DNA of 64,000 bases from an uncultured virus (IMG/VR IMGVR_UViG_3300020048_000025) (Duplodnaviria > Heunggongvirae > Uroviricota > Caudoviricetes): IMG/VR virus record IMGVR_UViG_3300020048_000025; one strand, written 5' to 3'. Below the pieces are notes generated by a model. That model saw nothing but the letters and a program-made list of their open reading frames with translations, did no database searches and was not told the DNA's origin. The position numbers and the translations under genes are program-made. Below, piece by piece: positions 540-54,821 of the stretch (positions within the stretch are counted from its first letter, which is position 1; each line of letters starts with the position of its first letter).

Positions 540-594
540 AAATAATATAAAGCAAATTCGTATATTTCAGCATAAAATTAATAAAATAAAGGTT

Positions 595-654
595 ATGAAA
601 AATTTTATTATTACTTCAAAAGTACAATCAACTAAAACATTTAAATCAGAATAA
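595..654 (+). CDS. 19-aa micro-ORF ending TFKSE
   Basis: follows promoter element and AAAATAAAGGTTATG; may be a remnant. Confidence 0.35.
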   Translation: MKNFIITSKVQSTKTFKSE

Positions 655-885
655 TATGGGATATAGTGAAAAAGGGGCATCAACTTCTACTTTATGGGCA
701 ATAGTTAATGAAAAAGATGAAATTTTATTTTCAAGAGGTGGTTCAAGTTCAACCCCAAAATTATTGGTTTATACAAATGAAACATCAGCTAAAAGAGCTT
801 TAAATAATACTTTCTCAAAACAACACATAGAAAACAATAAAATAGAGGTAAAATTAATTTACAACATTTAAATCAGAATAATATG
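636..885 (+). repeat. 23-bp direct repeat AACATTTAAATCAGAATAATATG (636-658, 863-885)
   Basis: two identical copies flank ORF 656..871. Confidence 0.9.
656..871 (+). CDS. hypothetical protein
   Basis: 71-aa ORF in early array. Confidence 0.6.
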   Translation: MGYSEKGASTSTLWAIVNEKDEILFSRGGSSSTPKLLVYTNETSAKRALNNTFSKQHIENNKIEVKLIYNI

Positions 886-999
886 AAAGCGGTACTTGAA
901 AAATTTACTGATGATAATGCTGAAGAGGCATAAAATAAGTAAATTTAAATTCGTATATTTCAGCATAATAAAAAAATAACAATTTAAAAAAGCAATATT

Positions 1000-1146
1000 A
1001 TGTATTTAGCAATCAATAAACAAAATAATCAGGATGCTCATAGTTTCACTTGGACTTGCGATGATAAGTTAATTATTAACGATAATGAAGTTAATCCTAA
1101 GGATTGGGAAATTGTGGAAGTAGGCATTTTAGATTCAAGTTATTAA
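1000..1146 (+). CDS. hypothetical 48-aa protein
   Basis: MYLAINKQNNQD...; directly downstream of promoter element at 927. Confidence 0.55.
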   Translation: MYLAINKQNNQDAHSFTWTCDDKLIINDNEVNPKDWEIVEVGILDSSY

Positions 1147-1164
1147 CTAATAAAAATAAAGGTT

Positions 1165-1320
1165 ATGAAAGAATTAAGCGCAATTGAAAAATTAGAGTTT
1201 GTTAAAACAACTATGGAAGCATTAGGATTTAACTTCGGAGGAATGACAGTAGAAGAAGCATTTGAAATGTTTAAAGCAATTAAATTTAGCATTAGCCATA
1301 CATTGGCCATGCAGATGTAA
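1165..1320 (+). CDS. hypothetical 51-aa protein
   Basis: AAAAATAAAGGTTATG leader; MKELSAIEKLEFVK... Confidence 0.6.
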   Translation: MKELSAIEKLEFVKTTMEALGFNFGGMTVEEAFEMFKAIKFSISHTLAMQM

Positions 1321-1569
1321 GTAAATTAAACAGATAATATAATGCATATGAGAGAGATAAAATAGAGATAAAGACAACGAACGAGAATAAGGAATAAACC
1401 AACTAAGAAATAAATCGTATATTCCAGTATAAATAAGATTATCACCGAAATAAATCACCAAAAACATATTACCGAATAAAGTGGTAAAATAATGGTAATA
1501 AAAATATCATAAAATGCCATCAAGTGTGAACAACGAGGGAGGTAAATGTATTACAGAGAGGGTGAATAG

Positions 1570-1678
1570 GGTAAGTTAGGTAAGCAAGTGGTAAGTGAAT
1601 GACGGAGATAGGTAAGCAAGGTAAGTGAAAGAGATATAGGAATGTATGTGAGGTACATAGGGAGGTAAGCAAGGTAAG
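1570..1678 (+). repeat. GGTAAG repeats in a purine-rich tract
   Basis: GGTAAG at 1570, 1579, 1590, 1611, 1620, 1664, 1673. Confidence 0.75.
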
Positions 1679-1850
1679 TAAAGGAAACGGAGGACGGGGA
1701 GCGTGTGAGCAACGGGGGGCGGAAGGAGATGGCGGGGAGGCACGGGATCTAACACATCTCGCGCGCGGAGGCACGCCCTTTTAACACCTTCCAAAAATAT
1801 ATACTCCACGCCCTCCCACGCGCCTCTGCGCAGAGACATAAAATAAAAAA

Positions 1851-1888
1851 TTAGGAGATAAAAAAATAAATTCGTATATTAAAGCATA
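1851..1888 (+). promoter_or_regulatory. promoter-like element, short spacing class
   Basis: TTAGG then CGTATATTAAAGCATA with the CG 19 nt after the first G; no long ORF downstream. Confidence 0.6.
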
Positions 1889-2087
1889 AATGAAGATCAC
1901 CAATGACGATCACAGACGATTATTACCGATGCCTATCACAGATGAATATTAACGATATAAATGTTATTCCAGGGCAAAATGAAGCGATTTAAACGTATAC
2001 CAATTGAGGATCACCGATGGTGGCGATTAACGAGAAATAAGCACTGAATAACAACTAAAGAGACACTGCTTCATAACCAGTAATTTT

Positions 2088-2126
2088 CCTTGGATCCCCT
2101 CGCTACGAGGGGTGACAAGGTTTTTT
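2088..2126 (+). terminator. intrinsic terminator-like hairpin
   Basis: CCTTG..CCCCTCG-CTA-CGAGGGG..CAAGG followed by TTTTTT. Confidence 0.6.
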
Positions 2127-2166
2127 AGGGAACGCGACTTTGATGGGGGAGTTACATATGTATCGC

Positions 2167-2189
2167 CGCACCAGGGTGCGTTTTTCTTT
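2167..2189 (+). terminator. small terminator-like hairpin
   Basis: CGCAC-CAGG-GTGCG followed by TTTTTCTTT. Confidence 0.45.
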
Positions 2190-2406
2190 GAATTAATTAA
2201 ACAGAACAGATGCTACGGCACAGGTGATACAATCGGTTAATCCATTCCCTTTCACTATCCCAGTAATTTAATTAATTATCCCATGGAAAAATATACCGGA
2301 AGTTGCGGAGACAGGCGGGAAATAAGAGATGAAAGACCATCCGAAGCCATATCCACCACCATAGCTAAACGTAGCGAACGGGGAATTGAATTATTAGAGT
2401 AATCAG

Positions 2407-2443
2407 CATACTATGAATGACCATACTATGAATGACCATACTA
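2407..2443 (+). repeat. 15-bp tandem repeat CATACTATGAATGAC x2.5
   Basis: read directly from sequence. Confidence 0.9.
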
Positions 2444-2734
2444 GTGCACCGCAACAGGGAGGCCATAAGTTCCACTTACGATTTATGGAGACGCCAGGGA
2501 GGAAATGCAAGGGGATCTGCGAAAGGGGATTTGCGAAAGGCGAGATAAAATAATTGAAACAATTCAAGTGTAAACAGAATGTATTTTTTGTACATAGGTT
2601 AATATACTGCAAATTTAAGCTTATACAATTCGTATAGGCTACTTTAGGCTTTACTTAACTCAGGACACAAACATACGAACATAGCTTCGTATATTCAAGC
2701 ATAATTAAGAGATACAAATTAAAAAATAAAGGTT

Positions 2735-2893
2735 ATGAAAACAGATGTTAGCGAATATTGGGCAATGTATTATCATGTCTACTTATTCTTCAAATCAGGG
2801 GGCACATTAGATAAAGCAATCAAGAAATATAAACGAATGGATGTGGTTAAGTATTTCTATAATTTCAATAAATTGAATCCAATTGGGATGTAA
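2735..2893 (+). CDS. hypothetical 52-aa protein
   Basis: promoter element at 2663 plus AAAAATAAAGGTTATG. Confidence 0.6.
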   Translation: MKTDVSEYWAMYYHVYLFFKSGGTLDKAIKKYKRMDVVKYFYNFNKLNPIGM

Positions 2894-2943
2894 ATAATCA
2901 AAGCATAGTTCGTATATTCAAGTATAAATAAAAAATAAAGGTT

Positions 2944-3249
2944 ATGAAAAAGATAGTATTGATAGGGTTAATGGGAATGAGTTTAATTTCATGCAAAAAA
3001 GAAAATACAACTGTATTAAAATATGCTTACATAACTCAGGACAACATTGAATACAGTAAAGTAAATCATAAAACAATTACAACACGACTATGTTCATATG
3101 ATACATCATTATCATCAAGTGAGGTAATTGCTGAGCAAGATAGATTAAAATCATTGAATGACATGACCGGTAAAACTATTTTAGCGGATACATTAGTTGA
3201 AATTTCAGACAATGTAACTGATGTATTATTTGCTCAAGTAGGGATGTAA
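2944..3249 (+). CDS. lipoprotein
   Basis: MKKIVLIGLMGMSLISC: signal peptidase II lipobox, followed by KKE. Confidence 0.75.
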   Translation: MKKIVLIGLMGMSLISCKKENTTVLKYAYITQDNIEYSKVNHKTITTRLCSYDTSLSSSEVIAEQDRLKSLNDMTGKTILADTLVEISDNVTDVLFAQVGM

Positions 3250-3352
3250 ATAATAGATAATTAGTTCGTATATTTCAGTATAAAGCAAGTAAAACGAAAT
3301 GGTTTTACTTTTAAAGCAAGTAAATATTAATTTAATTTAAAACTTAAAGATT

Positions 3353-3547
3353 ATGAAAAACGAGAAAACATTACGCAAAGAGCAATTAGTAAAAGATTTG
3401 TACTGGATTGAAAAGAAAAATAAATTTAACAAATCATGGGACAGTAATGTTAAAATGGCGTTTGATGTAAGTGGAAGTTATTCATTTGAAGAGTTAGTAT
3501 TGAAAAACACTTCAGCAGCGGAACAATTAGTAGTATTGTTCAAGTAG
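3353..3547 (+). CDS. hypothetical protein
   Basis: downstream of promoter element at 3242. Confidence 0.65.
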   Translation: MKNEKTLRKEQLVKDLYWIEKKNKFNKSWDSNVKMAFDVSGSYSFEELVLKNTSAAEQLVVLFK

Positions 3548-3582
3548 TAGGGCGTAAATATATAAATTTAAAATTAAACGTT

Positions 3583-3807
3583 ATGAGCAATAAAACATTT
3601 AAAAAAGGCGACAGAGTATATTCCATATTAAGTGGGTGGGGAACAGTAGATAAATTTAAACATCCAGGGGATTTTCCAATGACAGTTGAATTTGATAATG
3701 GAAATAATGAGCAATATACTATTGATGGAAGGTTTTATTTCAATTCACCACCAATTCTATCGTTTACTGAGTATACTCTCTCAGGATTTTCTCAAGAAGC
3801 ATGTTAG
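3583..3807 (+). CDS. hypothetical protein (SH3-like FKKGDRV..GWGTV pattern)
   Basis: 74-aa ORF with GTTATG leader. Confidence 0.65.
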   Translation: MSNKTFKKGDRVYSILSGWGTVDKFKHPGDFPMTVEFDNGNNEQYTIDGRFYFNSPPILSFTEYTLSGFSQEAC

Positions 3808-3902
3808 AATATTTGGGTAACAGGATGTAAAGATATAAAACGTAGTTCGTATATTCAGGTATAATTAAAAAAATAAATATTAATAATTTAAAATTAAAAG
3901 TT

Positions 3903-4112
3903 ATGAAAGCAATTAAATTTTTAGGTAAAGTCATTATCGCAGTTATTGGTTTACCATTTGTAGTAGTTTATCAAATTTGTTTAAGCATTATTCAGTTAAT
4001 CACAGCAGGTTTGTTATATATCGTATTGCGCCTTAAGGCAAAGCGGATGGCAAAGGAAATGGGAGCTGATACATTCACTTCAAGTTTAAAAATTAACTGG
4101 TTTAAAAAATAA
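3903..4112 (+). CDS. small membrane protein
   Basis: long hydrophobic N-terminal stretch; behind promoter element at 3823. Confidence 0.65.
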   Translation: MKAIKFLGKVIIAVIGLPFVVVYQICLSIIQLITAGLLYIVLRLKAKRMAKEMGADTFTSSLKINWFKK

Positions 4113-4178
4113 AAAAATAGGAAGCGCTTGTAATAGAGCGCTTTCGTATATTTAAGTATAATTAAAAAAATAAATGTT

Positions 4179-4334
4179 ATGTATAGTTTAAATTGTGAAT
4201 ATTTCAATGAGGAATTCAAATCAGTAAATGATTTATTAGATCATATTTTCCAAACAGGAATGGATCCAAATTATGAAATTACTAAAAATGGTAAATCAAT
4301 TGGTGAGAAAGCAGCTGATTATATTACAATGTAA
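4179..4334 (+). CDS. hypothetical 51-aa protein
   Basis: behind promoter element at 4120; MYSLNCEYFNEEF... Confidence 0.6.
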   Translation: MYSLNCEYFNEEFKSVNDLLDHIFQTGMDPNYEITKNGKSIGEKAADYITM

Positions 4335-4406
4335 TGGACGTAAAGATATAAGATATAGTTCGTATATTTAAGTATAAATAAGTTAAACAATTTAAAAATA
4401 AAGGTT

Positions 4407-4802
4407 ATGAAAAAGCAAGCAACATTAGAAGTAGCAATTGAGAAAAAATCATTCGTAGGTATCAAAACTGGCCGCAAACCAAACCCTGAATCAAATCGTC
4501 AAAAACGTTTAGCTGAGTTAAATGCTAAAATAGAGGCAGGTGTTACAATATCTCGTGGGCGCCCTGTTTCATCAGATAGTGAGAGACAAAAGCGTATAGC
4601 TGAGTTAGAGGCGAAACGCGCTAGTGGTGAATTGAAATTGGGGAGACGTGTGAATGAATCCAGTGCTCGACAATTGAGATTAAAAGAATTAGAGGCAAGA
4701 CGTGCAAATGGTGAGTTGAAACGTGGGCGCCCAGCTAAATCAAAAGATGTGGTTGTTGATGTTAACTTGATTGATATGTTAAAAGATATGGAGGCTAAGT
4801 AG
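4407..4802 (+). CDS. basic repeat protein with AT-hook-like (R)GRP motifs, probable DNA binder
   Basis: three approx. 28-aa repeats GR[KPR]x..S.RQ.R..EL.A....G plus a final KRGRP. Confidence 0.7.
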   Translation: MKKQATLEVAIEKKSFVGIKTGRKPNPESNRQKRLAELNAKIEAGVTISRGRPVSSDSERQKRIAELEAKRASGELKLGRRVNESSARQLRLKELEARRANGELKRGRPAKSKDVVVDVNLIDMLKDMEAK

Positions 4803-4856
4803 TCTCCATTTTTATTGTAATGTAGAACATAATTTAAACACGTAAAATCAATTCAT

Positions 4857-5018
4857 ATGAGCGCATATCAATTCATCAAATTAAATAGTCAATACATTCA
4901 GAACATAGACGGTTGCTTAACTGAATCCGCAAACATAACATTACTGGATATAAATGGTAAAATGGTATTTTATTATTTTGAAGAGGGTAAGTTAATAGAT
5001 AGTAAAATGGGACGCTAA
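4857..5018 (+). CDS. hypothetical 53-aa protein
   Basis: MSAYQFIKLNSQY...; stop overlaps the next element. Confidence 0.45.
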   Translation: MSAYQFIKLNSQYIQNIDGCLTESANITLLDINGKMVFYYFEEGKLIDSKMGR

Positions 5019-5088
5019 GCAGTTAGAGCGCTTTCGTATATTCAAGCATAATAAGAGATATAAATTAATAATTTAAAAATTAAAAGTT

Positions 5089-5283
5089 ATGAAAAATTAT
5101 TTAGTAGTAGGAATAGAGGATAGTAATGATAATTATTTAGTGAATGATTTAGAGGGATTAATCAAGGAAATGTATGAATGTGAATTATTTGATAATGAAT
5201 TTGAAGTAGTTAAAGGGTGGTTTTTTGATAATTATAAAGTATTTGTTAGTGAAAGTGATATAGTTGAATTAAATGAGGTATAA
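5089..5283 (+). CDS. small acidic hypothetical protein
   Basis: behind promoter element at 5010. Confidence 0.65.
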   Translation: MKNYLVVGIEDSNDNYLVNDLEGLIKEMYECELFDNEFEVVKGWFFDNYKVFVSESDIVELNEV

Positions 5284-5335
5284 GCAAATATAAATTCAGT
5301 TCGTATATTCCAGTATAAATTTAAAATTAAAAGTT

Positions 5336-5449
5336 ATGTTAGGTTCAATTGTTTATTTAGTAGTATTAGTTGGTTTTGGTTATGGTGTAAAATTATTATG
5401 CGATAAAGCAGATAGTAAGAAATTAAGTGATGAATTCAAAGGACAATAA
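5336..5449 (+). CDS. 37-aa membrane peptide
   Basis: MLGSIVYLVVLVGFGYGV; behind element at 5277. Confidence 0.5.
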   Translation: MLGSIVYLVVLVGFGYGVKLLCDKADSKKLSDEFKGQ

Positions 5450-5514
5450 TATACAAATAGTAGTTCGTATATTCAAGTATATTTATAACAAATAACAAAT
5501 AAAAATTTAAAATT

Positions 5515-5811
5515 ATGAGTAAAGAAAATTTGAGAATGCAGATGTTAGCAGGTATAATTACTGAAAGTCAGTATAAAGCTAAATTAAATGAAAACGTAGA
5601 TATTGAATTGGTTAAAAAATACCACTCTATTCTTGAGGATATTGGTGATTGGGAATTAGCAGGTGATTTAGAAGATATAATAGAAGCAGCTAATGGATTT
5701 GATACATTCTCTGAATTCTTACAAGAAGAATTTAATACCTTAGAAGAGGAAGATCCAGAAACAGTAGAAGAAATCAAAAATGCTTTAAGAGCTAATGGGA
5801 TAAAATTTTAG
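5515..5811 (+). CDS. acidic protein with scaffold-like N-terminal leader (putative internal head protein)
   Basis: MSKENLRMQMLAGIITE..KAKLNE leader; early element plus late motif ATATTTATA at 5479. Confidence 0.7.
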   Translation: MSKENLRMQMLAGIITESQYKAKLNENVDIELVKKYHSILEDIGDWELAGDLEDIIEAANGFDTFSEFLQEEFNTLEEEDPETVEEIKNALRANGIKF

Positions 5812-5890
5812 TTGTTTTTCAATAAAGGAAGCGCTTGTAATAGAGCGCTTTCGTATATTTCAGTATAAATAATTTAAAAAATTTAAAATT

Positions 5891-6259
5891 ATGAGTAAAG
5901 AAAATTTAAGAATGCAGATGTTAGCAGGTATAATTACTGAAGGTCAGTATAAAGCTAAGTTAAATGAAAATGAAAATGAATCTGCTGAGCTTAAGCGATT
6001 AGTTGATATGCTAAAAGCAGAGTTAGGTGAAGGTGTTACTGTTGAGTATTATGAAGTATATGATGAAGATAATGAAAATACTCGTAGAAAAATTGATGTA
6101 TACGGAACAGAGGACGGTTTTGAAGGTGACGGTGTGTTTGAAGTAGATATCGAAAATGATAAATTACATGTTTATTATTTAGATGAAGACGGTGATTACT
6201 TTTTTGATAGAGATGAAAATGTAGTTGCTTTTATTAAAAAAGAATTAGCTAATTTATAG
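5891..6259 (+). CDS. acidic protein with the same leader and a different body
   Basis: first 27 aa nearly identical to 5515 ORF; remainder unrelated. Confidence 0.7.
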   Translation: MSKENLRMQMLAGIITEGQYKAKLNENENESAELKRLVDMLKAELGEGVTVEYYEVYDEDNENTRRKIDVYGTEDGFEGDGVFEVDIENDKLHVYYLDEDGDYFFDRDENVVAFIKKELANL

Positions 6260-6351
6260 ATTTAAAAATGGAAGCGCTTATATTAGAGCGCTTTCGTATA
6301 TTCAAGTATAATTAAAATAAATAATATTAATTAAATTAAAAAATAAAGGTT

Positions 6352-6666
6352 ATGAAAGTTACAGGACAAATTTTATTCGTTAATGTTCAAAATGAAATCG
6401 TTTGTGGCGATGGATCATTCAAAGCAACAGTTGAACATCAATTAGTAGTAGGTGAAAGTGGAACCGATCTAGAATTCATTGATATTGCAAATATTACTTT
6501 TATGGGGATGCCTATAGAAGGATATAAAGCATTCAAACAATTCAAAGAAAAAATGAGTGAAATGGGAGTAGATATTGATAAAATGGTAGATGATGCTTGT
6601 GTGGGATTGATTCCAGATAGTTTTATTAAGGAATTTGAAGCTAAATTTGCAAAAATAAATTCATAG
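6352..6666 (+). CDS. hypothetical protein
   Basis: behind element at 6270; AAAAATAAAGGTTATG. Confidence 0.7.
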   Translation: MKVTGQILFVNVQNEIVCGDGSFKATVEHQLVVGESGTDLEFIDIANITFMGMPIEGYKAFKQFKEKMSEMGVDIDKMVDDACVGLIPDSFIKEFEAKFAKINS

Positions 6667-6727
6667 GACATAAAACAATAAGATCCAGTTCGTATATTCA
6701 AGTATAAATAAATTAAAACATATGGTT

Positions 6728-6895
6728 ATGAAAACAAATGATGTAATGTTCAAAGGATTGTTAAGTTGTGTTTCTAAATTAATCGAAATCAAATATCTTA
6801 AAAATGTTCAAACCATAATACCTGAGGATGGGAGTGGTAAAACATTTATAGTTTTATTTGAAGGTGAAACCGAACATACATTCATCAGAATATAG
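6728..6895 (+). CDS. hypothetical 55-aa protein
   Basis: behind element at 6666; GGTTATG leader. Confidence 0.55.
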   Translation: MKTNDVMFKGLLSCVSKLIEIKYLKNVQTIIPEDGSGKTFIVLFEGETEHTFIRI

Positions 6896-6972
6896 TAACT
6901 GGATAGAGATAGTATAAATAAGAGTCGTATATTCCAGTATAAATAAAAAATATAAATTTAAAATTAAACGTT

Positions 6973-7200
6973 ATGAAATGGTTTAAAGTATTAGAAGTAA
7001 ATAATGTTATTTCAGAAGTAATGAGATTCGAAAATTGTAAATTTCGAGCTCATACTGATAGTTGTAGAGTTCAAGATATAGAAACTGGGGAGATAATTAA
7101 TGTAGATAATAATAGTACTAATAATTTAGAAGTGGAAATAATAAATAAAGTAAGTGACTTTGATTTAATAGAGGGAGATGAGTTTGGAATTAGGACATAA
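6973..7200 (+). CDS. hypothetical protein
   Basis: behind element at 6901. Confidence 0.65.
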   Translation: MKWFKVLEVNNVISEVMRFENCKFRAHTDSCRVQDIETGEIINVDNNSTNNLEVEIINKVSDFDLIEGDEFGIRT

Positions 7201-7251
7201 AACAATAAGATCCAGTTCGTATATTTCAGTATAATAAAAAATAAAACGGTT

Positions 7252-7500
7252 ATGAGAAAGCAAGACATGATTAAACAAATCCAACAAACTGAAGCGAGTA
7301 TGTTTCTACAATGCAAACAAGATGAGCATACGTTTGGTTCTGACAGTTCAATATATAAAACATCTAGAGCTCAATGGAATGGTGTTTATGAGTTAATGAA
7401 TAAGCTAGGTATTAAACCTGATTATACCCTGGATGAGAATAATCAAATTGTAGAGTTAATAAATATGAAATATAATAGTGTAGGGGCCGTAGAGATATGA
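7252..7500 (+). CDS. hypothetical protein
   Basis: behind element at 7193; last gene of the array. Confidence 0.65.
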   Translation: MRKQDMIKQIQQTEASMFLQCKQDEHTFGSDSSIYKTSRAQWNGVYELMNKLGIKPDYTLDENNQIVELINMKYNSVGAVEI

Positions 7501-8150
7501 TCCCCTTCTCTCGTACCGTATATATACTGGATGTGGGGGGCGGTATGGTATATATATGGTATCGGGTGTAGGGCCCCATGTGCGCAGGTGTCAATACGGC
7601 GCGGTGGTGTGGTGGGGCGTGAATTAGACGCCTTCACAACTCGCTTACAAAACCTTCACATCGACATCGTATATCCTTATATATCAAATAACATACCCCA
7701 AAGCATGTAACTAAATCAACCGGGAACCGTTTATCCCATTTCTAACCAACCATTTTCAAACCATTTACCCATTACCCAATTATATACCTATATCCTAAAC
7801 ATTCACTATATCTATTTCCAATCCCAGGTTAAACATACAAATAACCCCCCACAAAACCAAATAAAATTCCCAAACACCCAAATATTCCAGTATTCCATAA
7901 ATCCCAAACCTTTCCCTCTGTACCCTTTTTCCATCGTCGATCAAATATATATTCATATACTCAACCGTTATCCATATTTTCTATGTACCGGGTACATGTT
8001 CATATATTTTCCCCCTTGTTCCCATCACCCATGTCTCATACGTTCCATCCCTCATTCATCCCATGTTCCATCCAACCCTTTTCTCCTATTTTTAAACCCC
8101 AGGTTCAACATACAACGGCAAATTATAATTGCCTAGTTTTTTTTAACAAT
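7501..8150. other. non-coding block: GC/G-rich segment followed by C-rich, G-poor tract
   Basis: no credible ORF; hairpins GGCGT-GAATTAG-ACGCC and ATGTAC-CGG-GTACAT. Confidence 0.7.
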
Positions 8151-8160
8151 ATTTATAAAC

Positions 8161-8256
8161 ATGAATAAAATAATTAGAATACCCTTGTACCTCACAGTAG
8201 GATTTATGGCTTTAGTCATGTCCCCAATTTTATTAATCAAATCAATTATTCAGTAA
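8161..8256 (+). CDS. 31-aa membrane peptide
   Basis: MNKIIRIPLYLTVGFMALVMSPILLIKSIIQ; TAATG overlap with the next gene. Confidence 0.45.
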   Translation: MNKIIRIPLYLTVGFMALVMSPILLIKSIIQ

Positions 8257-8609
8257 TGGCTACATATACTTCAGAACAACTTTACGGTAGCGGAAGTTAC
8301 GCGCCAAACTTAACGAAAGACACCACATACACGTTCAGTGTCGATAACCCGGGTAATAGCGCTTATCTCGCGCTTGAAACCACATTATCTGCGCAACAAT
8401 ATGCCTATACAAGCACGTCACCCAAAAACTTATCCGGTTCATTCTCAAATTATACCAATATGGTGAACAATGTATCATTTTCAGACTATATAGCTGCTTT
8501 TGTAATCCCAACAGGCTCCTGCTCATTCACCTTCACTCCAGCCATTAATGTAACCGGAACAACATTGAAGGTAAGAGGAACTGGAAATGTATCTTTGGTA
8601 ATTACTTAA
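8256..8609 (+). CDS. S/T/G-rich beta protein, probably virion structural
   Basis: composition like the tail proteins; SGS/TGS motifs; late motif upstream. Confidence 0.6.
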   Translation: MATYTSEQLYGSGSYAPNLTKDTTYTFSVDNPGNSAYLALETTLSAQQYAYTSTSPKNLSGSFSNYTNMVNNVSFSDYIAAFVIPTGSCSFTFTPAINVTGTTLKVRGTGNVSLVIT

Positions 8610-8615
8610 AAAACA

Positions 8616-8648
8616 TTTGGTTTTAACCCAATACTTTCGTATATTAAA
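8616..8648 (+). promoter_or_regulatory. Bacteroidota-type promoter (TTTG-N20-TATATT)
   Basis: TTTGG..CGTATATTAAA; same spacing at about 9878, 36503, 40613, 42516, 56685. Confidence 0.6.
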
Positions 8649-8667
8649 CCATATTAATAAATCAAAT

Positions 8668-8904
8668 ATGGACACTAATTATAAAAAAGGAAAAACCATT
8701 ACCACATCTGACGGAACCATCATGACCACATTTGATGGTAAATTACATAATTGGGAGGGCCCCGCTGTTATCCCTCAGGGTAATGAAAAGTTATCCGAAT
8801 ATTACATTAACGGAATTAAAATGACCTACCAAGAATGGAAAAAAGCATTGCGCGGTCGAATAGGATTACCATGGTATAAAGGCGGTGCTACCGTTAGATT
8901 TTAA
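8668..8904 (+). CDS. hypothetical protein (GKLH..EGPA motif family)
   Basis: DGKLHNWEGPAVI..EYYINGI; ATG at 8668 preferred over the upstream TTG. Confidence 0.7.
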   Translation: MDTNYKKGKTITTSDGTIMTTFDGKLHNWEGPAVIPQGNEKLSEYYINGIKMTYQEWKKALRGRIGLPWYKGGATVRF

Positions 8905-8928
8905 TTAAACAATGCAAAAATAAAGGTT

Positions 8929-9378
8929 ATGAAATATATTACACTCGAACAATCATTCAAGTTTATTCCAACTAGCGAAGACGGATACACTCACTTTGAA
9001 CCACATTATTTCACCACAGTTGAAGATAATGGGTGGGACAAAGTAATTTACTTTACCAATAAACCAAAGAAAGAATTTGGTGGCGTAAATGGTGAACAGT
9101 TTGTGTATATTATGTCAAACAAATATATGCCTGATATAATTAAAATAGGTTATACATCCTTAAATCCATACGATAGGGCACAAATATTATCAAAAAACAC
9201 TGGTGTGCCCGACGAATTTGTAGTTGATTTTGCATATAGGTGCATTGATGGGAGAAAATTGGAAACAATGGTGCATGAGCATTTTAAATCATTTCGCATT
9301 AGAAAACAACGTGAGTTTTTTAAAATAGGAGCCGATGAAGCCATTGATGTAATAGTTAACATAGGCAATAGTTTGTAA
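8929..9378 (+). CDS. T5orf172/MUG113-type GIY-YIG domain protein
   Basis: FVYIMSN..PDIIKIGYT..P..RA..LS..TGVP..F...LE..VH..F...R...REFF. Confidence 0.8.
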   Translation: MKYITLEQSFKFIPTSEDGYTHFEPHYFTTVEDNGWDKVIYFTNKPKKEFGGVNGEQFVYIMSNKYMPDIIKIGYTSLNPYDRAQILSKNTGVPDEFVVDFAYRCIDGRKLETMVHEHFKSFRIRKQREFFKIGADEAIDVIVNIGNSL

Positions 9379-9452
9379 TATGTATGATTGTGCGCAAATC
9401 AATTAATTTAACGCGCGTATCAATTACTAAAATATAATATATACATAGAATT

Positions 9453-9881
9453 ATGAATTTGGAGAGGGTATTTGATTTATTTGGTTTCTTCGACAGTGAT
9501 GAAGATACTAATAAACGTTTAGAGCAAGAAGTAGATGACTACAAGTCTACACCTCATTTCAAGATTAAGATGTTTATTAAATTGATCAATAATGGAATCA
9601 TTTTCAAACGCCAGGTAATTGATTTCTTTCAACAAGCTGACCCTAACTTAGACAAAGCCGACATAAACGAAGCTGGAGATTTTGTTATGTACACTAGAGC
9701 ATGGTTTTGGATAAGCCAATGTGACTTAACAGATGAGAAATGGCAAGAGTGTTTACGATTTATACCTCATACTAAATTAAATGAATGTATTGACCCATGT
9801 ATGGAACACTATTTAGCATTTGAAGAATACGAAAAATGTGCTTTCCTAAAACAAATCCAGGATTTCATCAAAAACACTTGA
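9453..9881 (+). CDS. hypothetical protein with C-terminal UVR-like EEYEKCA motif
   Basis: motif read from translation. Confidence 0.65.
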   Translation: MNLERVFDLFGFFDSDEDTNKRLEQEVDDYKSTPHFKIKMFIKLINNGIIFKRQVIDFFQQADPNLDKADINEAGDFVMYTRAWFWISQCDLTDEKWQECLRFIPHTKLNECIDPCMEHYLAFEEYEKCAFLKQIQDFIKNT

Positions 9882-9931
9882 TATGCCCATTTTCATTTCG
9901 TATATTAGCCTATAAATATAAATAATAAGTT

Positions 9932-29948: not shown

Positions 29949-30922
29949 ACCAACTAGTACAATCCATCATTCAACCATTCACCGAAGCGCAAATGAAATC
30001 AGTTGCACTTGTTCCCGGTGGGTATAAACCACCTACATCCGGTCACTTTTATCTCGTGAACGAGATGGCCAAACGTAGTGAAATAGACGAGGTGATTGTA
30101 CTAATTGGACATAAAGTACGTGATGGTATCACCGCTGAACAAAGTTTAGCGATATGGGAGATATACAAAAAATATTTACCGTCAAACGTTACCATACAAA
30201 TGGCTGAAGCAAATTCACCCATTTTAGACATACATAAAATAATTGGCGACAACCCCCAAAACTACTATTTCCCTGTGGTTGGTATACGCAGTGAAGAAGA
30301 CGCAAAAGACATTAAACGATTCGATTCACTAGGCAAAAAATACACCAATTTCAAAACCGTCGTTCTACCTGGCAACCCAGACGTAAGTGGAACCAAAGCA
30401 CGCCAGGCGCTAATGGAGGGTAACCACGATATCCTCAAACATTACTTACCCGATACATTGAGTGATGTTGAAATGCAACAAGTAGTAGACATACTTAACC
30501 CACAAACCACCGTAACCGAAACAGAACAACCCACCGATTCACGCCAATTATTGTTAGGATATATCCAGTCATTAAATGAGTATATGGTTAGTGAGGGAAT
30601 GAACGTACAGCCATTACCGCGCCTGGAAATAATCGACAACGATACTAAAAATGCAAGCGATTTCTTTGGCAAAACTGGATATTATAATCCTAATACTATG
30701 GTCATAACTGTATATTCATTTAACCGCTCTCCTCGTGATGTATTAGCCACAATATGTCATGAATATATTCATCATATTCAAAATCTAGAGGATCGTTTAC
30801 CTCAAATTAATACAACTAATGTTCACGAAGATGAAAAATTATTAGAAATTGAGCGTGAAGCATATGAGCAGGGTGGGTTGTTGTTAAGGAAATTGAAGAA
30901 TCATTTATTACCTAATTCATAA
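29945..30922 (+). CDS. HIGH-type nucleotidyltransferase fused to HEXXH zincin domain
   Basis: PGGYKPPTSGH, VSGT.AR; C-terminal CHEYIHHIQ..E.EA. Confidence 0.75.
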   Translation: MNQLVQSIIQPFTEAQMKSVALVPGGYKPPTSGHFYLVNEMAKRSEIDEVIVLIGHKVRDGITAEQSLAIWEIYKKYLPSNVTIQMAEANSPILDIHKIIGDNPQNYYFPVVGIRSEEDAKDIKRFDSLGKKYTNFKTVVLPGNPDVSGTKARQALMEGNHDILKHYLPDTLSDVEMQQVVDILNPQTTVTETEQPTDSRQLLLGYIQSLNEYMVSEGMNVQPLPRLEIIDNDTKNASDFFGKTGYYNPNTMVITVYSFNRSPRDVLATICHEYIHHIQNLEDRLPQINTTNVHEDEKLLEIEREAYEQGGLLLRKLKNHLLPNS

Positions 30923-31728
30923 TGTTTATAACAGGTATATATAAAATAATCAACCCTAATAATAAAATATATGTTGGGAAAAGTAAAAACATCACACAAC
31001 GATTTTCTAGTTACTTAAAACTTCAACATTGTAAGCAACAGATAAAATTATATAATTCTTTAAAAAAATATGGTCCTGAAAATCACATATTTGAAATATT
31101 AGAAGAATGTGATATAAATATAATAGATGAACGAGAAATATACTGGATATCATTTTTGAAATGTATTGAATTAGGATTGAATTTAACGCATGGAGGTGAA
31201 GGTGGTAAGTTATCTCCTGAATCTGAGTTAAAAAAAAGAATAAACAATTCATATCCAATATATCAATTTGATATGGATGGTAATTTTATAAAAAAATATG
31301 ATGGAGCATCTTTTGCAGTAGAAGAGTTGGGTTTTGGATTTCCCAATAACATAAATGATTGTGCTCGGGGTAAATATAAATCTACATATGGTTACAGGTG
31401 GGTATATGAAAATGATATTCAAGATTTAAATAACATTATTTTATCTCCTATTGAATATGCTCCTAGAGGTACTAAATGGGATGAAGAAAGAAGAACCAAA
31501 ACCAAAAAATCACGTGAAGGAGAAACCCGCAACCAAGAATATAAAGATAAAATCAAACAAATTAAACAAAAACCAGTATATAGAACAGACATTTCAGGTA
31601 ATACTCATAAAATCTTCAATTCATTTTCTGAATCTGATGGTTCTAAAATCATTGGTTCTAAAAAATTAAGAAATATACTAAATAAGAACATATATTATAA
31701 AGGTTATATTTATCATTATAACATATAA
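30922..31728 (+). CDS. GIY-YIG homing endonuclease with NUMOD1-like repeats
   Basis: GIYKI..KIYVGKS..LYNS..KYG..LNLT.GGEG; PIYQFDMDGNFIK; markedly AT-rich. Confidence 0.85.
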   Translation: MFITGIYKIINPNNKIYVGKSKNITQRFSSYLKLQHCKQQIKLYNSLKKYGPENHIFEILEECDINIIDEREIYWISFLKCIELGLNLTHGGEGGKLSPESELKKRINNSYPIYQFDMDGNFIKKYDGASFAVEELGFGFPNNINDCARGKYKSTYGYRWVYENDIQDLNNIILSPIEYAPRGTKWDEERRTKTKKSREGETRNQEYKDKIKQIKQKPVYRTDISGNTHKIFNSFSESDGSKIIGSKKLRNILNKNIYYKGYIYHYNI

Positions 31729-39652: not shown

Positions 39653-39922
39653 ATGACCCCATACACCGACATAGAGACAACCGATACATATATCATTCGT
39701 GAATTCAACGAAAATGTAGACCCGATTGAACTACTTTGGCATCGCGACAATGAATCCCGCACCATCGAAATACTAGAGGACACAAATTGGCATATCCAGT
39801 TAGACGATAACTTGCCTACCTCACTAAAAGAACATATATTTATACCTAAACACGCATATCACCGTTTAATTAAAGGTAACGGAACACTCAAACTCAAAAT
39901 ACATAAACATGAACAAATCTGA
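39653..39922 (+). CDS. cupin-like protein
   Basis: WHRD.E.R..FIPK..YHRLIKG. Confidence 0.65.
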   Translation: MTPYTDIETTDTYIIREFNENVDPIELLWHRDNESRTIEILEDTNWHIQLDDNLPTSLKEHIFIPKHAYHRLIKGNGTLKLKIHKHEQI

Positions 39923-40220
39923 TTTACGTAGAATCATCAAGGAAGAAATTCAAAAAACTTTAGAAGACCAATCTACAACTACCGGAGATGAAAATTTATT
40001 TGATGACCTTCCCTCTGTAGACATGCATATTGATGATAATGAATTTATGAGTATTAACATCCAATCAATGTTCCACAGCCCAGATAATGGTAAAATTTAT
40101 ATTTTATTAAAAAACCCTCAAATTAGAGATGCTGTAGTCTATGCTATTCAAAGAGGAGCACAAAAATTATTTAGAAAAACCATCCACGGTTTAGCTGGAG
40201 AACCGTTTAATTTACCTTAA
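39909..40220 (+). CDS. leader-bearing hypothetical protein
   Basis: MNKSDLRRIIKEEIQK. Confidence 0.7.
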   Translation: MNKSDLRRIIKEEIQKTLEDQSTTTGDENLFDDLPSVDMHIDDNEFMSINIQSMFHSPDNGKIYILLKNPQIRDAVVYAIQRGAQKLFRKTIHGLAGEPFNLP

Positions 40221-40232
40221 AAATACACAAAC

Positions 40233-40538
40233 ATGAACAAATCAGATTTACGTCGCATTATCAAAGAAGAAATTCAAAAAGTGGTAGCTGAAGCTACATT
40301 AACCGAATCCAACTTAAAAGACATGCTTCCGGCTGGTCCCGGCACATACAAAATTGAATTCACCACATCAAAACGTGATTCATTTGACGAGGCAACAGTT
40401 ACCGTAACACAAGAGCAAATGGACCTTGCCAAAAAATTGGAAACTAGCGGATACAATTTCTGGAGAGACGCAGCAGAGGAAGCAAACTCAATGTTCACTA
40501 GCGGCGATTCAGTATTGAACGTAACCAAAATCAACTAA
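40233..40538 (+). CDS. leader-bearing hypothetical protein
   Basis: identical 16-aa leader MNKSDLRRIIKEEIQK, unrelated body. Confidence 0.7.
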   Translation: MNKSDLRRIIKEEIQKVVAEATLTESNLKDMLPAGPGTYKIEFTTSKRDSFDEATVTVTQEQMDLAKKLETSGYNFWRDAAEEANSMFTSGDSVLNVTKIN

Positions 40539-51061: not shown

Positions 51062-51697
51062 ATGAACAAACAACTACTAATTGAAACAAGATACTTTAAC
51101 CCATCCCCTGTTCGTCTCCTAGAAGGACAGGGAAACGGTGGGAATGTATTTGTGGAGGGTATATTGGCAACTGTTGAAGTAAAAAACGGAAACGGTCGTT
51201 ATTACCCACGCGAGTTATGGGAACGTGAAATCGATATCTTTCAACAACATATCCAGAAAAAAACCACCGAAGTCTGCGGCGAACTCGACCACCCAGATTC
51301 ACAGATCATCAACCTAAAAAACGTATCTCATGCTATTCGCAAAATATGGTGGGACGGAGATAAAATCATGGGTGTGATTGAAGTATTTTCCGATATGGGA
51401 GAAAAAGGAACATCTTCGGGTCGCATAGCTGGAGCATTGATTAAGAATGGGTTGAACATTGGTATGTCGTCCCGAGGTTTGGGTTCACTTAAGCAAGTAG
51501 GTGAAATCATGGAGGTGCAGGATGATTTCACTTTACTCTGTTTTGATCTAGTTAGTAATCCATCAAACCCCAATTCATGGTTCTCTCAATCAGGTCAACT
51601 AAACGAATCAAGAACTACTCAATTAGATCCATACAATAAAGTCAACTCAATAGTTACCGAAATACTGTGTACTAAAGGTACATGCCCTATATTTTAA
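51062..51697 (+). CDS. prohead core protease (T4 gp21-like)
   Basis: KNGNGRYYP, GELDHP, VSH, GMSSRGLGS, FDLVSNPS. Confidence 0.95.
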   Translation: MNKQLLIETRYFNPSPVRLLEGQGNGGNVFVEGILATVEVKNGNGRYYPRELWEREIDIFQQHIQKKTTEVCGELDHPDSQIINLKNVSHAIRKIWWDGDKIMGVIEVFSDMGEKGTSSGRIAGALIKNGLNIGMSSRGLGSLKQVGEIMEVQDDFTLLCFDLVSNPSNPNSWFSQSGQLNESRTTQLDPYNKVNSIVTEILCTKGTCPIF

Positions 51698-51894: not shown

Positions 51895-53115
51895 ATGGCA
51901 ACAAACAGAGAAATGCTTGCAGAAGCAATTGCTGACGCTAAAACCTTGAAGGAAATGGCAATAGCAAACGCTAAAGCAGCCCTGGAAGAAACCTTCACAC
52001 CTCAATTGAAAAATTTGCTATCATTGAAACTTCAGGAAATGTCTGACGACATAAACGAAGAAGAAGACCTTGACGAAGCAGGTTTTGGACCAATGATCAA
52101 TGTAAAAGGTCACGGTAATATCGAGGACGAATCATCGTTATATGAAACGGATGATGAAAACATGAATGAAATTGACTTAGAAGAGTTACTTGCAGAAATT
52201 GAAAACGAAGAAATCGACGAAACACTAAACGAAGCTGAAGAAGCTGAAGAATCTGAAGAAGAGGAAGCAGGTGAAAAAGCAGAGGAGGAAGAAGAGCCAA
52301 TGAAATTAGAGGACATTAACTTGACTGACGAAGATTTAAAAGAAATGATCGAAGACGTAATCGCGGATATGGTTAAAGCTGGAGAATTAGAAGCAGGACA
52401 TGGTGAAGAAGGTGAAGAGGAAGAAGGCGACGAAGAAATCGAGTTAGACCTGGACAACGAAGAAGATGTTGATTTAGCTGAATTGTTACGCGAAATTGAA
52501 GGCGAAGACGTATCTATAGAAAGTTTAGCATCAACATTACGTAGAGAATTCCCAAATTCATCAATTAAAGTTCAAAGCATAGAAGGTACAGACGACGAAG
52601 ATATGGAAATCGTTATTAATGATGATATTTTTATCTCAGGTGGTGCTTATAATGAATGGGACGCAATGATAGATGGTGAAGAAGAAAGTTTCCAAAGCGA
52701 CGCTGAATTAATTAGTTATTTAAAAAGTAATATGTTGTCAGAAACAACAAGTAAATTAGCAGCTGAACTTAAAGAAGCACATGCTACAATCAACACATTA
52801 CGTTCAGATTTAAACGAGGTTAATTTGTTAAACGCTAAATTGCTTTACACTAACAAAATCTTCAAAGCAAAAACATTGAACGAAAGTCAAAAAGTAAAAG
52901 TGTTGAGTTCATTTGACAAAGCAACTACAGTAAAAGAAGTAAAATTGGTTTATTCAACTTTAAACGAGGGTCTTAAAGTAAAAACAAACCCAATCCGTGA
53001 AAATTTAGGTAGAGCTTCAAAAGCAACAAATACACCAGTTGTAAACACAAAACAACCAATAGTTGAGTCAAACGAAGTATTCAATAGAATGCGTAAATTG
53101 GCTGGGCTAATTTAA
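51895..53115 (+). CDS. prohead scaffolding protein (T4 gp22-like)
   Basis: very acidic, coiled-coil, between protease and capsid; ends RMRKLAGLI. Confidence 0.8.
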   Translation: MATNREMLAEAIADAKTLKEMAIANAKAALEETFTPQLKNLLSLKLQEMSDDINEEEDLDEAGFGPMINVKGHGNIEDESSLYETDDENMNEIDLEELLAEIENEEIDETLNEAEEAEESEEEEAGEKAEEEEEPMKLEDINLTDEDLKEMIEDVIADMVKAGELEAGHGEEGEEEEGDEEIELDLDNEEDVDLAELLREIEGEDVSIESLASTLRREFPNSSIKVQSIEGTDDEDMEIVINDDIFISGGAYNEWDAMIDGEEESFQSDAELISYLKSNMLSETTSKLAAELKEAHATINTLRSDLNEVNLLNAKLLYTNKIFKAKTLNESQKVKVLSSFDKATTVKEVKLVYSTLNEGLKVKTNPIRENLGRASKATNTPVVNTKQPIVESNEVFNRMRKLAGLI

Positions 53116-53144: not shown

Positions 53145-54821
53145 ATGTCAACAATTAATTCATTATTAGAAAGTTCAGCAAATGGCTGGAAAAACTTACA
53201 AAGCGATGCTGCTAGAATGGCTGCAAAGTGGGGTAAGACAGGTTTACTAGAAGGTATCGGAACTGAAGTAGACAAAAACAACATGGCAATGATTCTTGAA
53301 AACCAAGCTAAACAGCTGGTTATGGAGTCCAATTCAACTAACCAAGGTGGTGGTACTTTCAGTGCTGGTAATGGATCAGGTGGTGAGCAATGGGCAGGAG
53401 TAGCTTTACCATTAGTACGTAAAGTATTCGGTTCTTTATCAACTAAAGAATTCATGTCAGTTCAACCAATGAACTTACCTTCAGGTCTAGTTTTCTTCTT
53501 AGATTTCGCATATGGTCAAACTAAAAAATTGAACTTCGGACCAGCAGGAGATATCTACGGAACAGGTTCATTATATGGTGTAACTAACCCAGGTGCTGCA
53601 AACGATCCAAACGGAGGTTTATATGGTGCTGGAAGATTCGGATACACAATCAACCAATTCTCAGCTTCAGCTACAACTACAGTTGCTACTGCATCTTGGG
53701 CAGACGTTAACTATGCTGCTGAATTATCAGCTTCTGTTGCTGCTGGTGCTTATACAAAAGTATCTGTTGCTGCATCTGCATTAACTCGTCCTGACTTGAA
53801 AGGTGTTAGAGCATTTACATTAGCTTCTGGTTCAACATTAACTCCAAATACAAACGCTAAAGTATTACCTCAATATACTAAAACTGACGGAACAAACATC
53901 TCATTTATCTATGTAGGTGCTGTAGCTGCTGCTGACGTTCCTGCTGCAGGTGCTGGAAACGTTGTATGGTACAACCAACAACCAGTTGACAATAACAGAG
54001 GTGATTTCGAAGATGCATCAGGTGCTGGATACGCAAACGCTGGATCTACATCAGCTGACGCATTAGCTATTCCATCAATTGATATCAAATTGAAATCAGA
54101 AGCTATTGTTGCCAAAACACGTAAATTGAAAGCACAATGGACTCCAGAGTTCGCACAAGATTTGAACGCTTACCAATCATTGGATGCTGAAGCAGAATTA
54201 ACTTCAATCATGTCTGAATATATCGCATTAGAAATCGATTTAGAAAACTTAGACATGTTGATTCAAGACGCTTCTGCAGCAGATGAGTACTGGTCAGCAA
54301 TTAACAACAGATCATTAAACTCAGGTAAAACTGGATTCGATAATTTAGGTTTCTACAACACACAAGGACAATGGTTCCAAACATTAGGTACTAAATTCCA
54401 AAAAGTGTCAAACAAAATTCACCAAAAGACATTGAGAGGTGGTGCTAACTTCATGGTATGTTCTCCAGCTGTAGCAACAATTCTTGAGTCAATCCCAGGA
54501 TTTGCTTCATCTTCTGACGGTGATGTAACTAAATCAAATTATGCATTTGGTATCCAAAAATCAGGTAACTTGAACAACCGTTACACTGTATACAAAAATC
54601 CATATATGACTGAAAACGTTATCTTGATGGGTTACAGAGGTGCTCAATTCTTAGAAACAGGAGCTGTATTCGCGCCTTATGTTCCTTTGATCATGACACC
54701 ACTTGTATACGATCCTGAAACATTTACACCAAGAAAAGGTCTATTGACTCGCTACGCGAAGAAAATGATTAGACCTGAATTCTTCGGTAGAGTATTCGTT
54801 TCTGACTTAGCAAGCATCTAA
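53145..54821 (+). CDS. major capsid protein (T4 gp23-like)
   Basis: ILENQ, VQPMNLPSGLVF, TRKLKAQWTPEFAQDL, APYVPL, F.P.KG..TRY. Confidence 0.97.
   Translation: MSTINSLLESSANGWKNLQSDAARMAAKWGKTGLLEGIGTEVDKNNMAMILENQAKQLVMESNSTNQGGGTFSAGNGSGGEQWAGVALPLVRKVFGSLSTKEFMSVQPMNLPSGLVFFLDFAYGQTKKLNFGPAGDIYGTGSLYGVTNPGAANDPNGGLYGAGRFGYTINQFSASATTTVATASWADVNYAAELSASVAAGAYTKVSVAASALTRPDLKGVRAFTLASGSTLTPNTNAKVLPQYTKTDGTNISFIYVGAVAAADVPAAGAGNVVWYNQQPVDNNRGDFEDASGAGYANAGSTSADALAIPSIDIKLKSEAIVAKTRKLKAQWTPEFAQDLNAYQSLDAEAELTSIMSEYIALEIDLENLDMLIQDASAADEYWSAINNRSLNSGKTGFDNLGFYNTQGQWFQTLGTKFQKVSNKIHQKTLRGGANFMVCSPAVATILESIPGFASSSDGDVTKSNYAFGIQKSGNLNNRYTVYKNPYMTENVILMGYRGAQFLETGAVFAPYVPLIMTPLVYDPETFTPRKGLLTRYAKKMIRPEFFGRVFVSDLASI

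Follow-up and report, generated by a model that had tools for sequence, protein, structure and literature searches.

A leader peptide resembling the scaffold tail as a candidate removable prohead-targeting tag on unrelated acidic proteins of a T4-like phage

Why would a phage begin two otherwise unrelated proteins with the same peptide, and why would that peptide resemble the end of a third protein encoded 47 kb away? The question is raised by two neighbouring open reading frames (ORFs), ORF 5515 and ORF 5891, in a 64 kb part of a T4-like phage genome (IMG/VR record IMGVR_UViG_3300020048_000025); this whole 64 kb part is called the window here. The two ORFs (5515-5811, 98 amino acids [aa]; 5891-6259, 122 aa) have a common N-terminus of 27 residues, MSKENLRMQMLAGIITE[S/G]QYKAKLNEN, hereafter the leader, in which S or G at residue 18 is the sole difference. 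Their leader DNAs differ at 4 of 81 bases, three of the differences being synonymous. An earlier note on this DNA had described a common leader followed by unrelated acidic bodies, and this description holds: beyond the 27 residues the bodies are unrelated (BLASTP E = 0.17) and have isoelectric points (pI) of 4.05 and 4.06. Neither body matched a Pfam or PHROG family, and the ESM Atlas look-alikes of both belong to unnamed clusters only. A single-sequence AlphaFold2 (AF2) model of ORF 5891 reached a mean predicted local distance difference test (pLDDT) score of 62, too weak for a fold search; at this low confidence it has helices at residues 3-11 and 17-26 and a break at 27-30. The answer that we consider somewhat probable, judging from the sequences, is that the leader imitates the scaffold, directs proteins to the prohead and can be removed by protease, as a variant of the T4 capsid-targeting sequence (CTS).

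The third protein is encoded between the genes for a Peptidase_S77 prohead protease and a Gp23-family major capsid protein. It is acidic and helical and is kept at the same place in relatives. No Pfam or PHROG family was found for it, nor any sequence or profile homology to an annotated scaffold family, so the name scaffold is used here in a positional sense; its GenBank relatives are annotated as 'DNA polymerase phi-like' or hypothetical. Homologues occupy the same gene position in Flavobacterium phage vB_FspM_immuto (immuto), the nearest named relative, in the more distant Microcystis phage Mel-JY01, and in three IMG/VR contigs of 95-131 kb. All six scaffolds end in a similar tail: NRMRKLAGLI in the window, SRWQKLAGIIK in immuto, ERMKKLAGIVK in Mel-JY01, and FLRMQKLAGII, ARFQKLAGII and FLRMQKLAGLL in the three contigs. 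An [LIV]-x-E triplet stands a few to ~12 residues before the tail in all six. The earlier note had matched the core of the leader to this distant tail, and the match withstood scanning of the window. In an ungapped BLOSUM62 comparison with LRMQMLAGII as the query, the last 10 residues of the scaffold were the best non-self match among 18,760 ORF 10-mers (27 vs 22 for the next), and only 3 of 72,222 six-frame 10-mers scored at least 27. The pattern R[MLFIV].[KMRQ][LIM]AG[ILVM] likewise occurs at only three places in the six frames of the 64 kb, namely the two leaders and the scaffold tail. Leader core and tail agree at 6 of 10 residues in the window and at 9 of 10 in one relative.

The leader is widespread. 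A query with residues 1-40 of ORF 5891 retrieved 649 proteins of 67-214 residues at E <= 0.1. The motif was present in all 120 of these that were listed, starting at residue 1 in 98, lying internally in 1, and following 1-21 extra upstream residues, probably over-extended starts, in 21. A search among longer proteins added 55 leader proteins of 215-378 residues. When a 32-column leader profile was compared with 1.84 billion cluster representatives (50% identity clusters), 1022 matched at E <= 1e-3 and 508 at E <= 1e-10. Among the 150 of these 1022 matches that were listed, 136 were new, and the leader lay within the first 10 residues in 120, within the first 40 in 15 and internally in 1; one protein matching the profile has two leaders. 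Two leader genes (immuto26A_41 and immuto26A_188) are present in immuto, which is a cultured phage. Tabulated as the earlier note had suggested, the 137 motif matches in 900 kb comprise 113 at the N-terminus, 21 within 2 residues of the stop and 3 internal. Among the bodies, 215 distinct ones form 79 BLAST clusters, and 250 of at least 60 residues form 105. Bodies range from 36 to 408 residues. No Pfam match was found for 100 of the 105 cluster representatives, the other five matching a P-loop kinase, TPP_enzyme_C, DUF6576 (twice) and DUF2207_C. The bodies are acidic as a group, with a median pI of 4.50 and 79% below pI 5, compared with a median of 5.79 and 31% below 5 for 667 other ORFs of 60-300 residues from the same loci (Mann-Whitney p 1.6e-28).

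The conserved unit has a sharp boundary and is conserved as a peptide. Column entropy stays at ~0 between L6 and E26, and three residues past E26 it is already above 3 bits, so the unit ends at L-N-E. Position 24 is L, I or M in 99 of 102 distinct leaders and position 26 is E in 88. The ITE and LNE triplets to which the earlier note had drawn attention do lie inside the leader, at residues 15-17 and 24-26. Codon usage was examined in 102 distinct leader DNAs, taken from 74 IMG/VR loci and the window. R7 is invariant and is encoded by CGT in 55, AGA in 36 and CGC in 11; five Leu codons are used at each of L6 and L11, and three codons at T16. Since residues are fixed and codons are varied, selection acts on the peptide, and a purely DNA- or RNA-level element is excluded.

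Leaders are also modular, and the joints fall at the same type of triplet. The body of protein P0122, which has an L-A-G leader (...KLNE/ELDLSS, the slash marking the end of the leader), is 56% identical over 154 residues (E 2e-58) to that of a protein beginning MKKEQLKQLIKEEIRKVLNE/DLDIAS, and the alignment starts at the first residue past LNE in both proteins. A second pair, ...LNE/GKQVGTLYHF and MIKLLDILKEITE/GKQVGTLYHF (ITE), aligns with E 9e-18. Judged from these alignments, leaders are exchanged exactly after [LI]-x-E on homologous bodies. In four further cases (P0243, P0375, L035:3245-3973 and L069:17610-18656) the leader is internal or doubled, giving a body-leader-body order, and the internal leaders again follow [LI]-x-E (LNE, INE, LRE); this is consistent with fused neighbour genes whose products could still be separated by cutting.

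Related tags stand at C-termini as well. A census of ORFs ending in AG[ILVM][ILVM]?[KRN]? gave 59 unique ORFs: 1 scaffold, 29 members of a 77-aa family, 22 of a ~319-aa family, 2 of a 744-aa family, 3 GroEL proteins with an unrelated ending and 2 apparent chance cases. An [LIVM]-x-E triplet lies in the 17 residues before the tag in 57 of 58 C-tagged proteins, compared with 26% of background windows. With a cut-type site between tag and body at both termini, the arrangement is therefore mirrored. The ~319-aa family runs from MKLTDILREIEG to a RAGIIK or KLAGL-stop C-terminus (L027:9022-9978 and equivalents in other IMG/VR loci), and the 77-aa family from MNPKDTI.LDVPLFIRLLEYAR to RAGIIK-stop (L027:13439-13669 and equivalents in other IMG/VR loci). 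Neither family occurs in the window or in immuto. An AF2 model of the 319-aa family (pLDDT 75.5) had no Foldseek match in the PDB at E <= 1e-3, and Pfam and PHROG searches returned no families for the tagged families, the head-module unknowns or the other leader-like ORFs.

Further links run from the bodies to the head module. The body of P0106, which follows an L-A-G leader, aligns to scaffold residues 204-280 with 44% identity over 80 columns (E 2e-17), a stretch that directly follows LAELLREIEGE in the scaffold. Another body behind an L-A-G leader aligns to a 358-aa protein of a relative (36%, 81 residues, E 2e-11), and the N-terminus of that protein (MKKTLQDQYLLIKEGKGHKGVF) matches the N-terminus of ORF 49689-51041, which immediately precedes the protease gene. 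Leader-borne bodies are thereby tied to positional prohead components. The N-terminus of the 319-aa family, MKLTDILREIEGEE, has its two best window matches in the scaffold, at residues 194-205 (LAELLREIEGED, score 44) and 95-106 (LEELLAEIENEE).

Two side observations concern leader-like helices. Scaffold residues 194-280 look like an embedded 'leader plus cargo' cassette, consisting of LAELLREIEGE and a ~77-residue domain. There is also a second leader-like helix family in the window, where ORFs 39909-40220 and 40233-40538 begin with the same 16 residues (MNKSDLRRIIKEEIQK) but differ thereafter. Of the 12 best window matches to this string, 8 fell at residues 2-6 of ORFs; members of this class are also found at 15095, 37994, 39115, 39497, 43128, 29193, 31780 and 44836, several of the genes stand directly behind the promoter-like motif ATATTTATA, and in relatives the class replaces the L-A-G leader on homologous bodies.

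The motif ATATTTATA itself is enriched before leader genes. The + strand of the window has 12 copies where base composition predicts 1.6. For 9 of the 12, an ORF starts 4-28 nucleotides (nt) past the end of the motif; most of these belong to the tail, baseplate and head modules. In the loci of relatives, 39 of 105 leader genes have a copy in the 70 nt before them, compared with 35 of 650 small ORFs of other kinds (odds ratio 10, Fisher p 2e-17). The early-type element CGTATATT is not enriched there (13 of 105 vs 89 of 650 other small ORFs). As the earlier note had remarked, the two motifs are fused at ORF 5515 only: the copy of ATATTTATA at 5479 is the sole fusion, and the second copy in the same array region, at 8149, is unfused.

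In the mechanism that we propose, the 27-residue leader would be a detachable peptide derived from the scaffold's own C-terminal tail. Its first helix, LRMQMLAGII, would fill the site normally holding the tail R-[MFW]-x-K-L-A-G-[IL]-[ILV], which may belong either to the Gp23-type capsid protein (its inner face or its propeptide) or to the scaffold core, and leader-bearing proteins would be built into the prohead through it. The S77 (gp21-type) protease would then cut after I-T-E and/or L-N-E and free the body, and it would also cut the scaffold just before its tail. The freed bodies would most likely remain inside the head and reach the host together with the DNA. The capsid protein is the favoured candidate for the binding partner, with the scaffold core or the portal as alternatives; a complex prediction of capsid protein and leader, run without controls, gave a score of 0.00 and weighs neither way on binding. 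The earlier note had proposed that the scaffold tail is reused as a swappable tag. The sequence side of that proposal stands, in the distribution of the leader, its LNE boundary, selection on the peptide, the six tails, the leader swaps, the body homologies and the promoter enrichment; we infer binding, cleavage, packaging and delivery from these patterns.

The proposal borrows from T4. The CTS of T4 are N-terminal propeptides of 10-19 residues that confer core affinity on proteins and are cleaved off by gp21 (available portion of PMC9026906), and they are found on IPI-IPIII and Alt (Mullaney and Black 1996, as cited in the available portions of PMC9026906 and PMC9958956). According to the available text of PMC5694885, gp21 cuts Alt at ITE-6 and LTE-619, and LIE-9 is a further T4 cut-site example in the literature. 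An S77 protease is encoded in the present genome and T4 gp21 cuts at ITE and LTE, which counts for a cleavable tag. The leader may thus work like the T4 CTS, whose sequence-level features it has: it is an N-terminal peptide, mostly from residue 1, on otherwise unrelated proteins; the same genome has an S77 protease, a gp22-position scaffold and a gp23-type capsid protein; the peptide ends in an (L/I)-x-E type site; and the cargo set varies between related phages, with genes scattered outside the head module. It differs in having 27 residues and two predicted helices, compared with 10-19 residues in T4 (a distinction drawn from description), in its relationship to the scaffold's own C-terminal tail, in the presence of the motif at C-termini too, and in its far larger scale (1022 cluster representatives).

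Copying of a scaffold helix has precedents. The scaffolds of P22, 80alpha and herpesviruses bind coat protein through C-terminal peptides, and CpmB of SaPI1 copies the C-terminus of the 80alpha scaffold. The present scaffold would be similar in that its extreme C-terminal helix is a candidate capsid contact, and similar to that of herpesviruses in the release of the tail by an adjacent protease cut; the leader would be like CpmB in that a second protein copies a scaffold helix to reach the same site. Unlike in CpmB, many unrelated small proteins bear the copy, as their N-terminus, with cut-type sites behind it, and its apparent role is loading, not control of capsid size. Encapsulin cargo-loading peptides, which are short and terminal and dock to the inner face of an HK97-fold shell, are comparable as short terminal peptides on diverse cargo; they differ in being retained, in belonging to a shell without DNA and in having no sequence relationship to the leader. 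The giant phages SPN3US and phiKZ have long N-terminal propeptides on head and ejection proteins (available portion of PMC5694885). As described there, these protease-removed regions are thought to target the prohead, paralogues keep identical N-termini on diverged bodies, and there are several cut sites per propeptide; however, the propeptides often exceed 100 residues, are processed by an S80 protease at A/S-x-E sites and have no scaffold counterpart known in that text. The tag described here is, in contrast, short and scaffold-derived. The leader peptide strings had no match in the literature searched, and no account of a tag derived from a scaffold tail came up in a keyword search, which did not extend to subscription papers and closed supplements. 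How T4 proteins localise to the core involves mechanisms that 'remain mysterious' in the available portion of PMC9958956, and by analogy scaffold-tail mimicry would be a concrete answer to this question for the present clade.

Several observations pull the other way and temper our confidence. A full-length leader hidden Markov model run against all six-frame ORFs of the window found the two leaders only and missed the scaffold tail, so that, judged from the window by itself, the likeness covers little sequence (6 of 10 residues). Conservation is higher in the leader than in the scaffold tails, and the two show no tight co-variation: the leader stays LRMQMLAGII in phages with differing tails. 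Mel-JY01 has the tail, but no leader gene was found in it by the profile or by a degenerate DNA pattern, the one extra match of which was treated as chance. Both leader genes of the window lie in an early-type promoter array, with the late-type motif at ORF 5515 only, and we infer from gene context alone that ATATTTATA is a late promoter. Some bodies have predicted membrane segments or a P-loop kinase domain, which would make them odd cargo. T4 internal proteins are described as basic (available portion of PMC9026906), so the acidic bodies are a difference from T4 and not a parallel, and acidic proteins are less obviously favourable for packing with DNA. The sole pointer to a DNA-mimic or anti-defence role for the bodies is their acidity; Pfam and PHROG searches returned no family for the window bodies and their Atlas look-alikes are unnamed, which speaks neither for nor against such a role.

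Among the alternatives, the one that fares best, although we consider it unlikely, accepts that the leader targets the prohead and holds that the bodies are expendable accessory parts of the core or scaffold, degraded or expelled at maturation and never delivered. The bodies match the scaffold in acidity, a domain inside the scaffold has a homologue in one leader-borne body, and the ~319-aa family of relatives bears a scaffold-like N-terminal motif together with the C-terminal tail. A fate of this kind is on record for the T4 core proteins gp67 and gp68, which are cut into small peptides (available portion of PMC9958956). Body acidity and scaffold homology thus keep this alternative alive. Against it stands the extreme diversity and turnover of the bodies (79 and 105 clusters; 1022 representatives), with 2-5 leader genes per genome in sets that differ between phages; such diversity and differing gene sets therefore form an accessory, arms-race pattern unlike that of assembly parts. 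Moreover, most bodies, as far as examined, have no internal run of cut-type sites. Body diversity accordingly favours delivered effectors.

A somewhat less likely alternative is that the peptide docks another shared hub, either the phage GroEL-type chaperonin or a replication or transcription hub, which the scaffold tail would use too, to be folded or recruited itself. Hub-binding motifs are usually short terminal peptides, and A-G-I-I may be loosely like the hydrophobic part of co-chaperonin mobile loops. Many tagged genes of relatives do lie in the replication module, in the order PolB, two unknown genes, GroEL, the 319-aa family, leader genes and a clamp-loader-like AAA protein, and the tagged 319-aa family directly follows GroEL wherever both were seen. 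In 14 of 20 cases, however, the two are separated by an intrinsic terminator followed by a separate ATATTTATA. They therefore do not form a single operon, and co-transcription of the 319-aa family with GroEL was rejected on these grounds. The scaffold is also the sole protein that always bears the tail (6 of 6), the cut-type sites lie on the body side of the tag at both termini, which fits removal inside the prohead, and there are bodies homologous to scaffold and head-module pieces. As an aside on the same syntenic block, the clamp-loader-like protein is followed by the 77-aa family, a leader gene and a PD-(D/E)XK nuclease.

It is very improbable that the 5' coding stretch acts as a nucleic-acid element, either a recombination anchor or a translational control, and that the peptide has no function. 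The window copies are identical at 77 of 81 bases and lie within an array of promoter and stem-loop cassettes, and common leaders would favour homologous exchange of bodies; against this, residues are fixed while codons vary across codon families in the 102 leader DNAs, and the scaffold and the C-termini of further proteins bear related tags. A DNA-level cassette is largely refuted by the codon variation. Least credible of all is a secretion, membrane-targeting or RiPP-type (ribosomally synthesised and post-translationally modified peptide) leader, rejected for want of supporting gene context: the architecture is like that of RiPP precursors and polymorphic toxins, which also combine a conserved leader with a hypervariable remainder, but instead of being hydrophobic the leader is amphipathic and charged, the bodies have 36-408 residues, no modifying enzyme or transporter genes adjoin the leader genes, and the scaffold-tail link would be left unexplained.

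The preferred reading, a removable tag that mimics the scaffold tail, has a broader version that we put forward tentatively, as a possibility of distinctly lower standing. The scaffold of these T4-like phages, which are aquatic and abundant, may serve as the template of an 'address code', in which the L-A-G helix and at least two internal helices (of the ELLREIEGE and DLKEMIED types) have been copied as tags, and these tags would be interchangeable, protease-removable and placed at the termini of unrelated genes.

The remaining features of the window are as follows, and coordinates are collected in Table 1. Baseplate genes and replication genes lie downstream of the capsid gene. All 8000 scored metagenomic candidates for the capsid protein match it at E <= 1e-20, and the 120 relatives listed are ~78-99% identical. 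Searches of the leader locus and ORF 5891 against a phage collection by blastn and tblastn gave no match, nor did tRNA and Rfam scans of the window. Small + strand genes form an array from ~550 to 9900. Within it, TTCGTATATT-NNAG-TATAAT/TATAAATA occurs in 18 copies, all within 557-9897 and before most of the small genes, and a GC-rich inverted repeat, GGAAGCGCT...AGAGCGCTT, precedes some of these elements; we take this promoter and stem-loop array to be comparable to the cassettes of T4-type hyperplastic regions. Two paralogous neighbours, 57501-58793 (430 aa) and 58803-60089 (428 aa), have common N-termini (MANLTLR...ELDGNFEYFTGSI) and C-termini (...PDFKFRFIIEYYQ), and no family match was found for them. 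Three ORFs are homing-endonuclease-like (8929-9378, 30922-31728 and 54986-56683); one of them, of 565 aa and GIY-YIG-type, lies directly 3' of the capsid gene behind a copy of ATATTTATA. The translation of the first - strand ORF (12-449) has a run of X, so there are undetermined bases near the start of the window. At ~7400-8250 there are unusual, G+C-richer ORFs on both strands, without a tRNA or Rfam match.

Table 1. Positions in the window of the leader genes, the scaffold-position gene and its parts, and the adjoining head genes
Feature	Position	Strand	Remarks
Promoter-like element: early-type CGTATATT (5466) then ATATTTATA (5479-5487)	5466..5487	+	28 nt before ORF 5515 ATG
Leader of ORF 5515, 27 codons, MSKENLRMQMLAGIITESQYKAKLNEN...	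5515..5595	+	candidate cut sites ITE 15-17, LNE 24-26
Body of ORF 5515 and stop, 71 aa, pI 4.05, net -16	5596..5811	+	no family
Inverted repeat GGAAGCGCT...AGAGCGCTTTC	5827..5871	+	overlaps TTCGTATATT (5850) and TATAAATA (5864); upstream of ORF 5891
Leader of ORF 5891, 27 codons, G18 for S18	5891..5971	+	
Body of ORF 5891 and stop, 95 aa, pI 4.06, net -19	5972..6259	+	no family
Large terminase	44836-46416		
Portal	46442-48340		
Unknown ORFs, n=3	between portal and S77 prohead protease		
Prohead protease, Peptidase_S77 (T4 gp21 family)	51062..51697	+	Pfam E 9.8e-26; phrog_207 E 4.9e-49
Scaffold-position protein, 406 aa, acidic	51895..53115	+	flanked by protease and major capsid protein
Scaffold internal motif LAELLREIEGED, residues 194-205	52474..52509	+	resembles second leader class N-terminus MKLTDILREIEGEE...
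Scaffold residues 204-280	52504..52734	+	homologous to body of leader-bearing metagenomic protein P0106
I-V-E, candidate protease site, residues 389-391	53059..53067	+	just before scaffold tail
Scaffold C-terminal tail RMRKLAGLI and stop	53086..53115	+	
Major capsid protein, Gp23 family	53145..54821	+	Pfam E 9.4e-71

A tag that copies the scaffold tail would give a concrete mechanism, namely competition for the tail site followed by proteolytic release. It also marks, by sequence alone, a large and almost wholly uncharacterised set of candidate virion-delivered proteins (1022 representatives); the phages that carry it belong to a clade whose capsid gene abounds in metagenomes. If the address-code version were true, more than 1000 fast-evolving, mostly acidic families would be loaded and injected as first-wave takeover or anti-defence effectors, and it would explain by analogy how T4's own proteins localise to the core. 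If confirmed, the leader would be a natural peptide for loading foreign proteins into the heads of Bacteroidota phages and a route to new anti-defence proteins.

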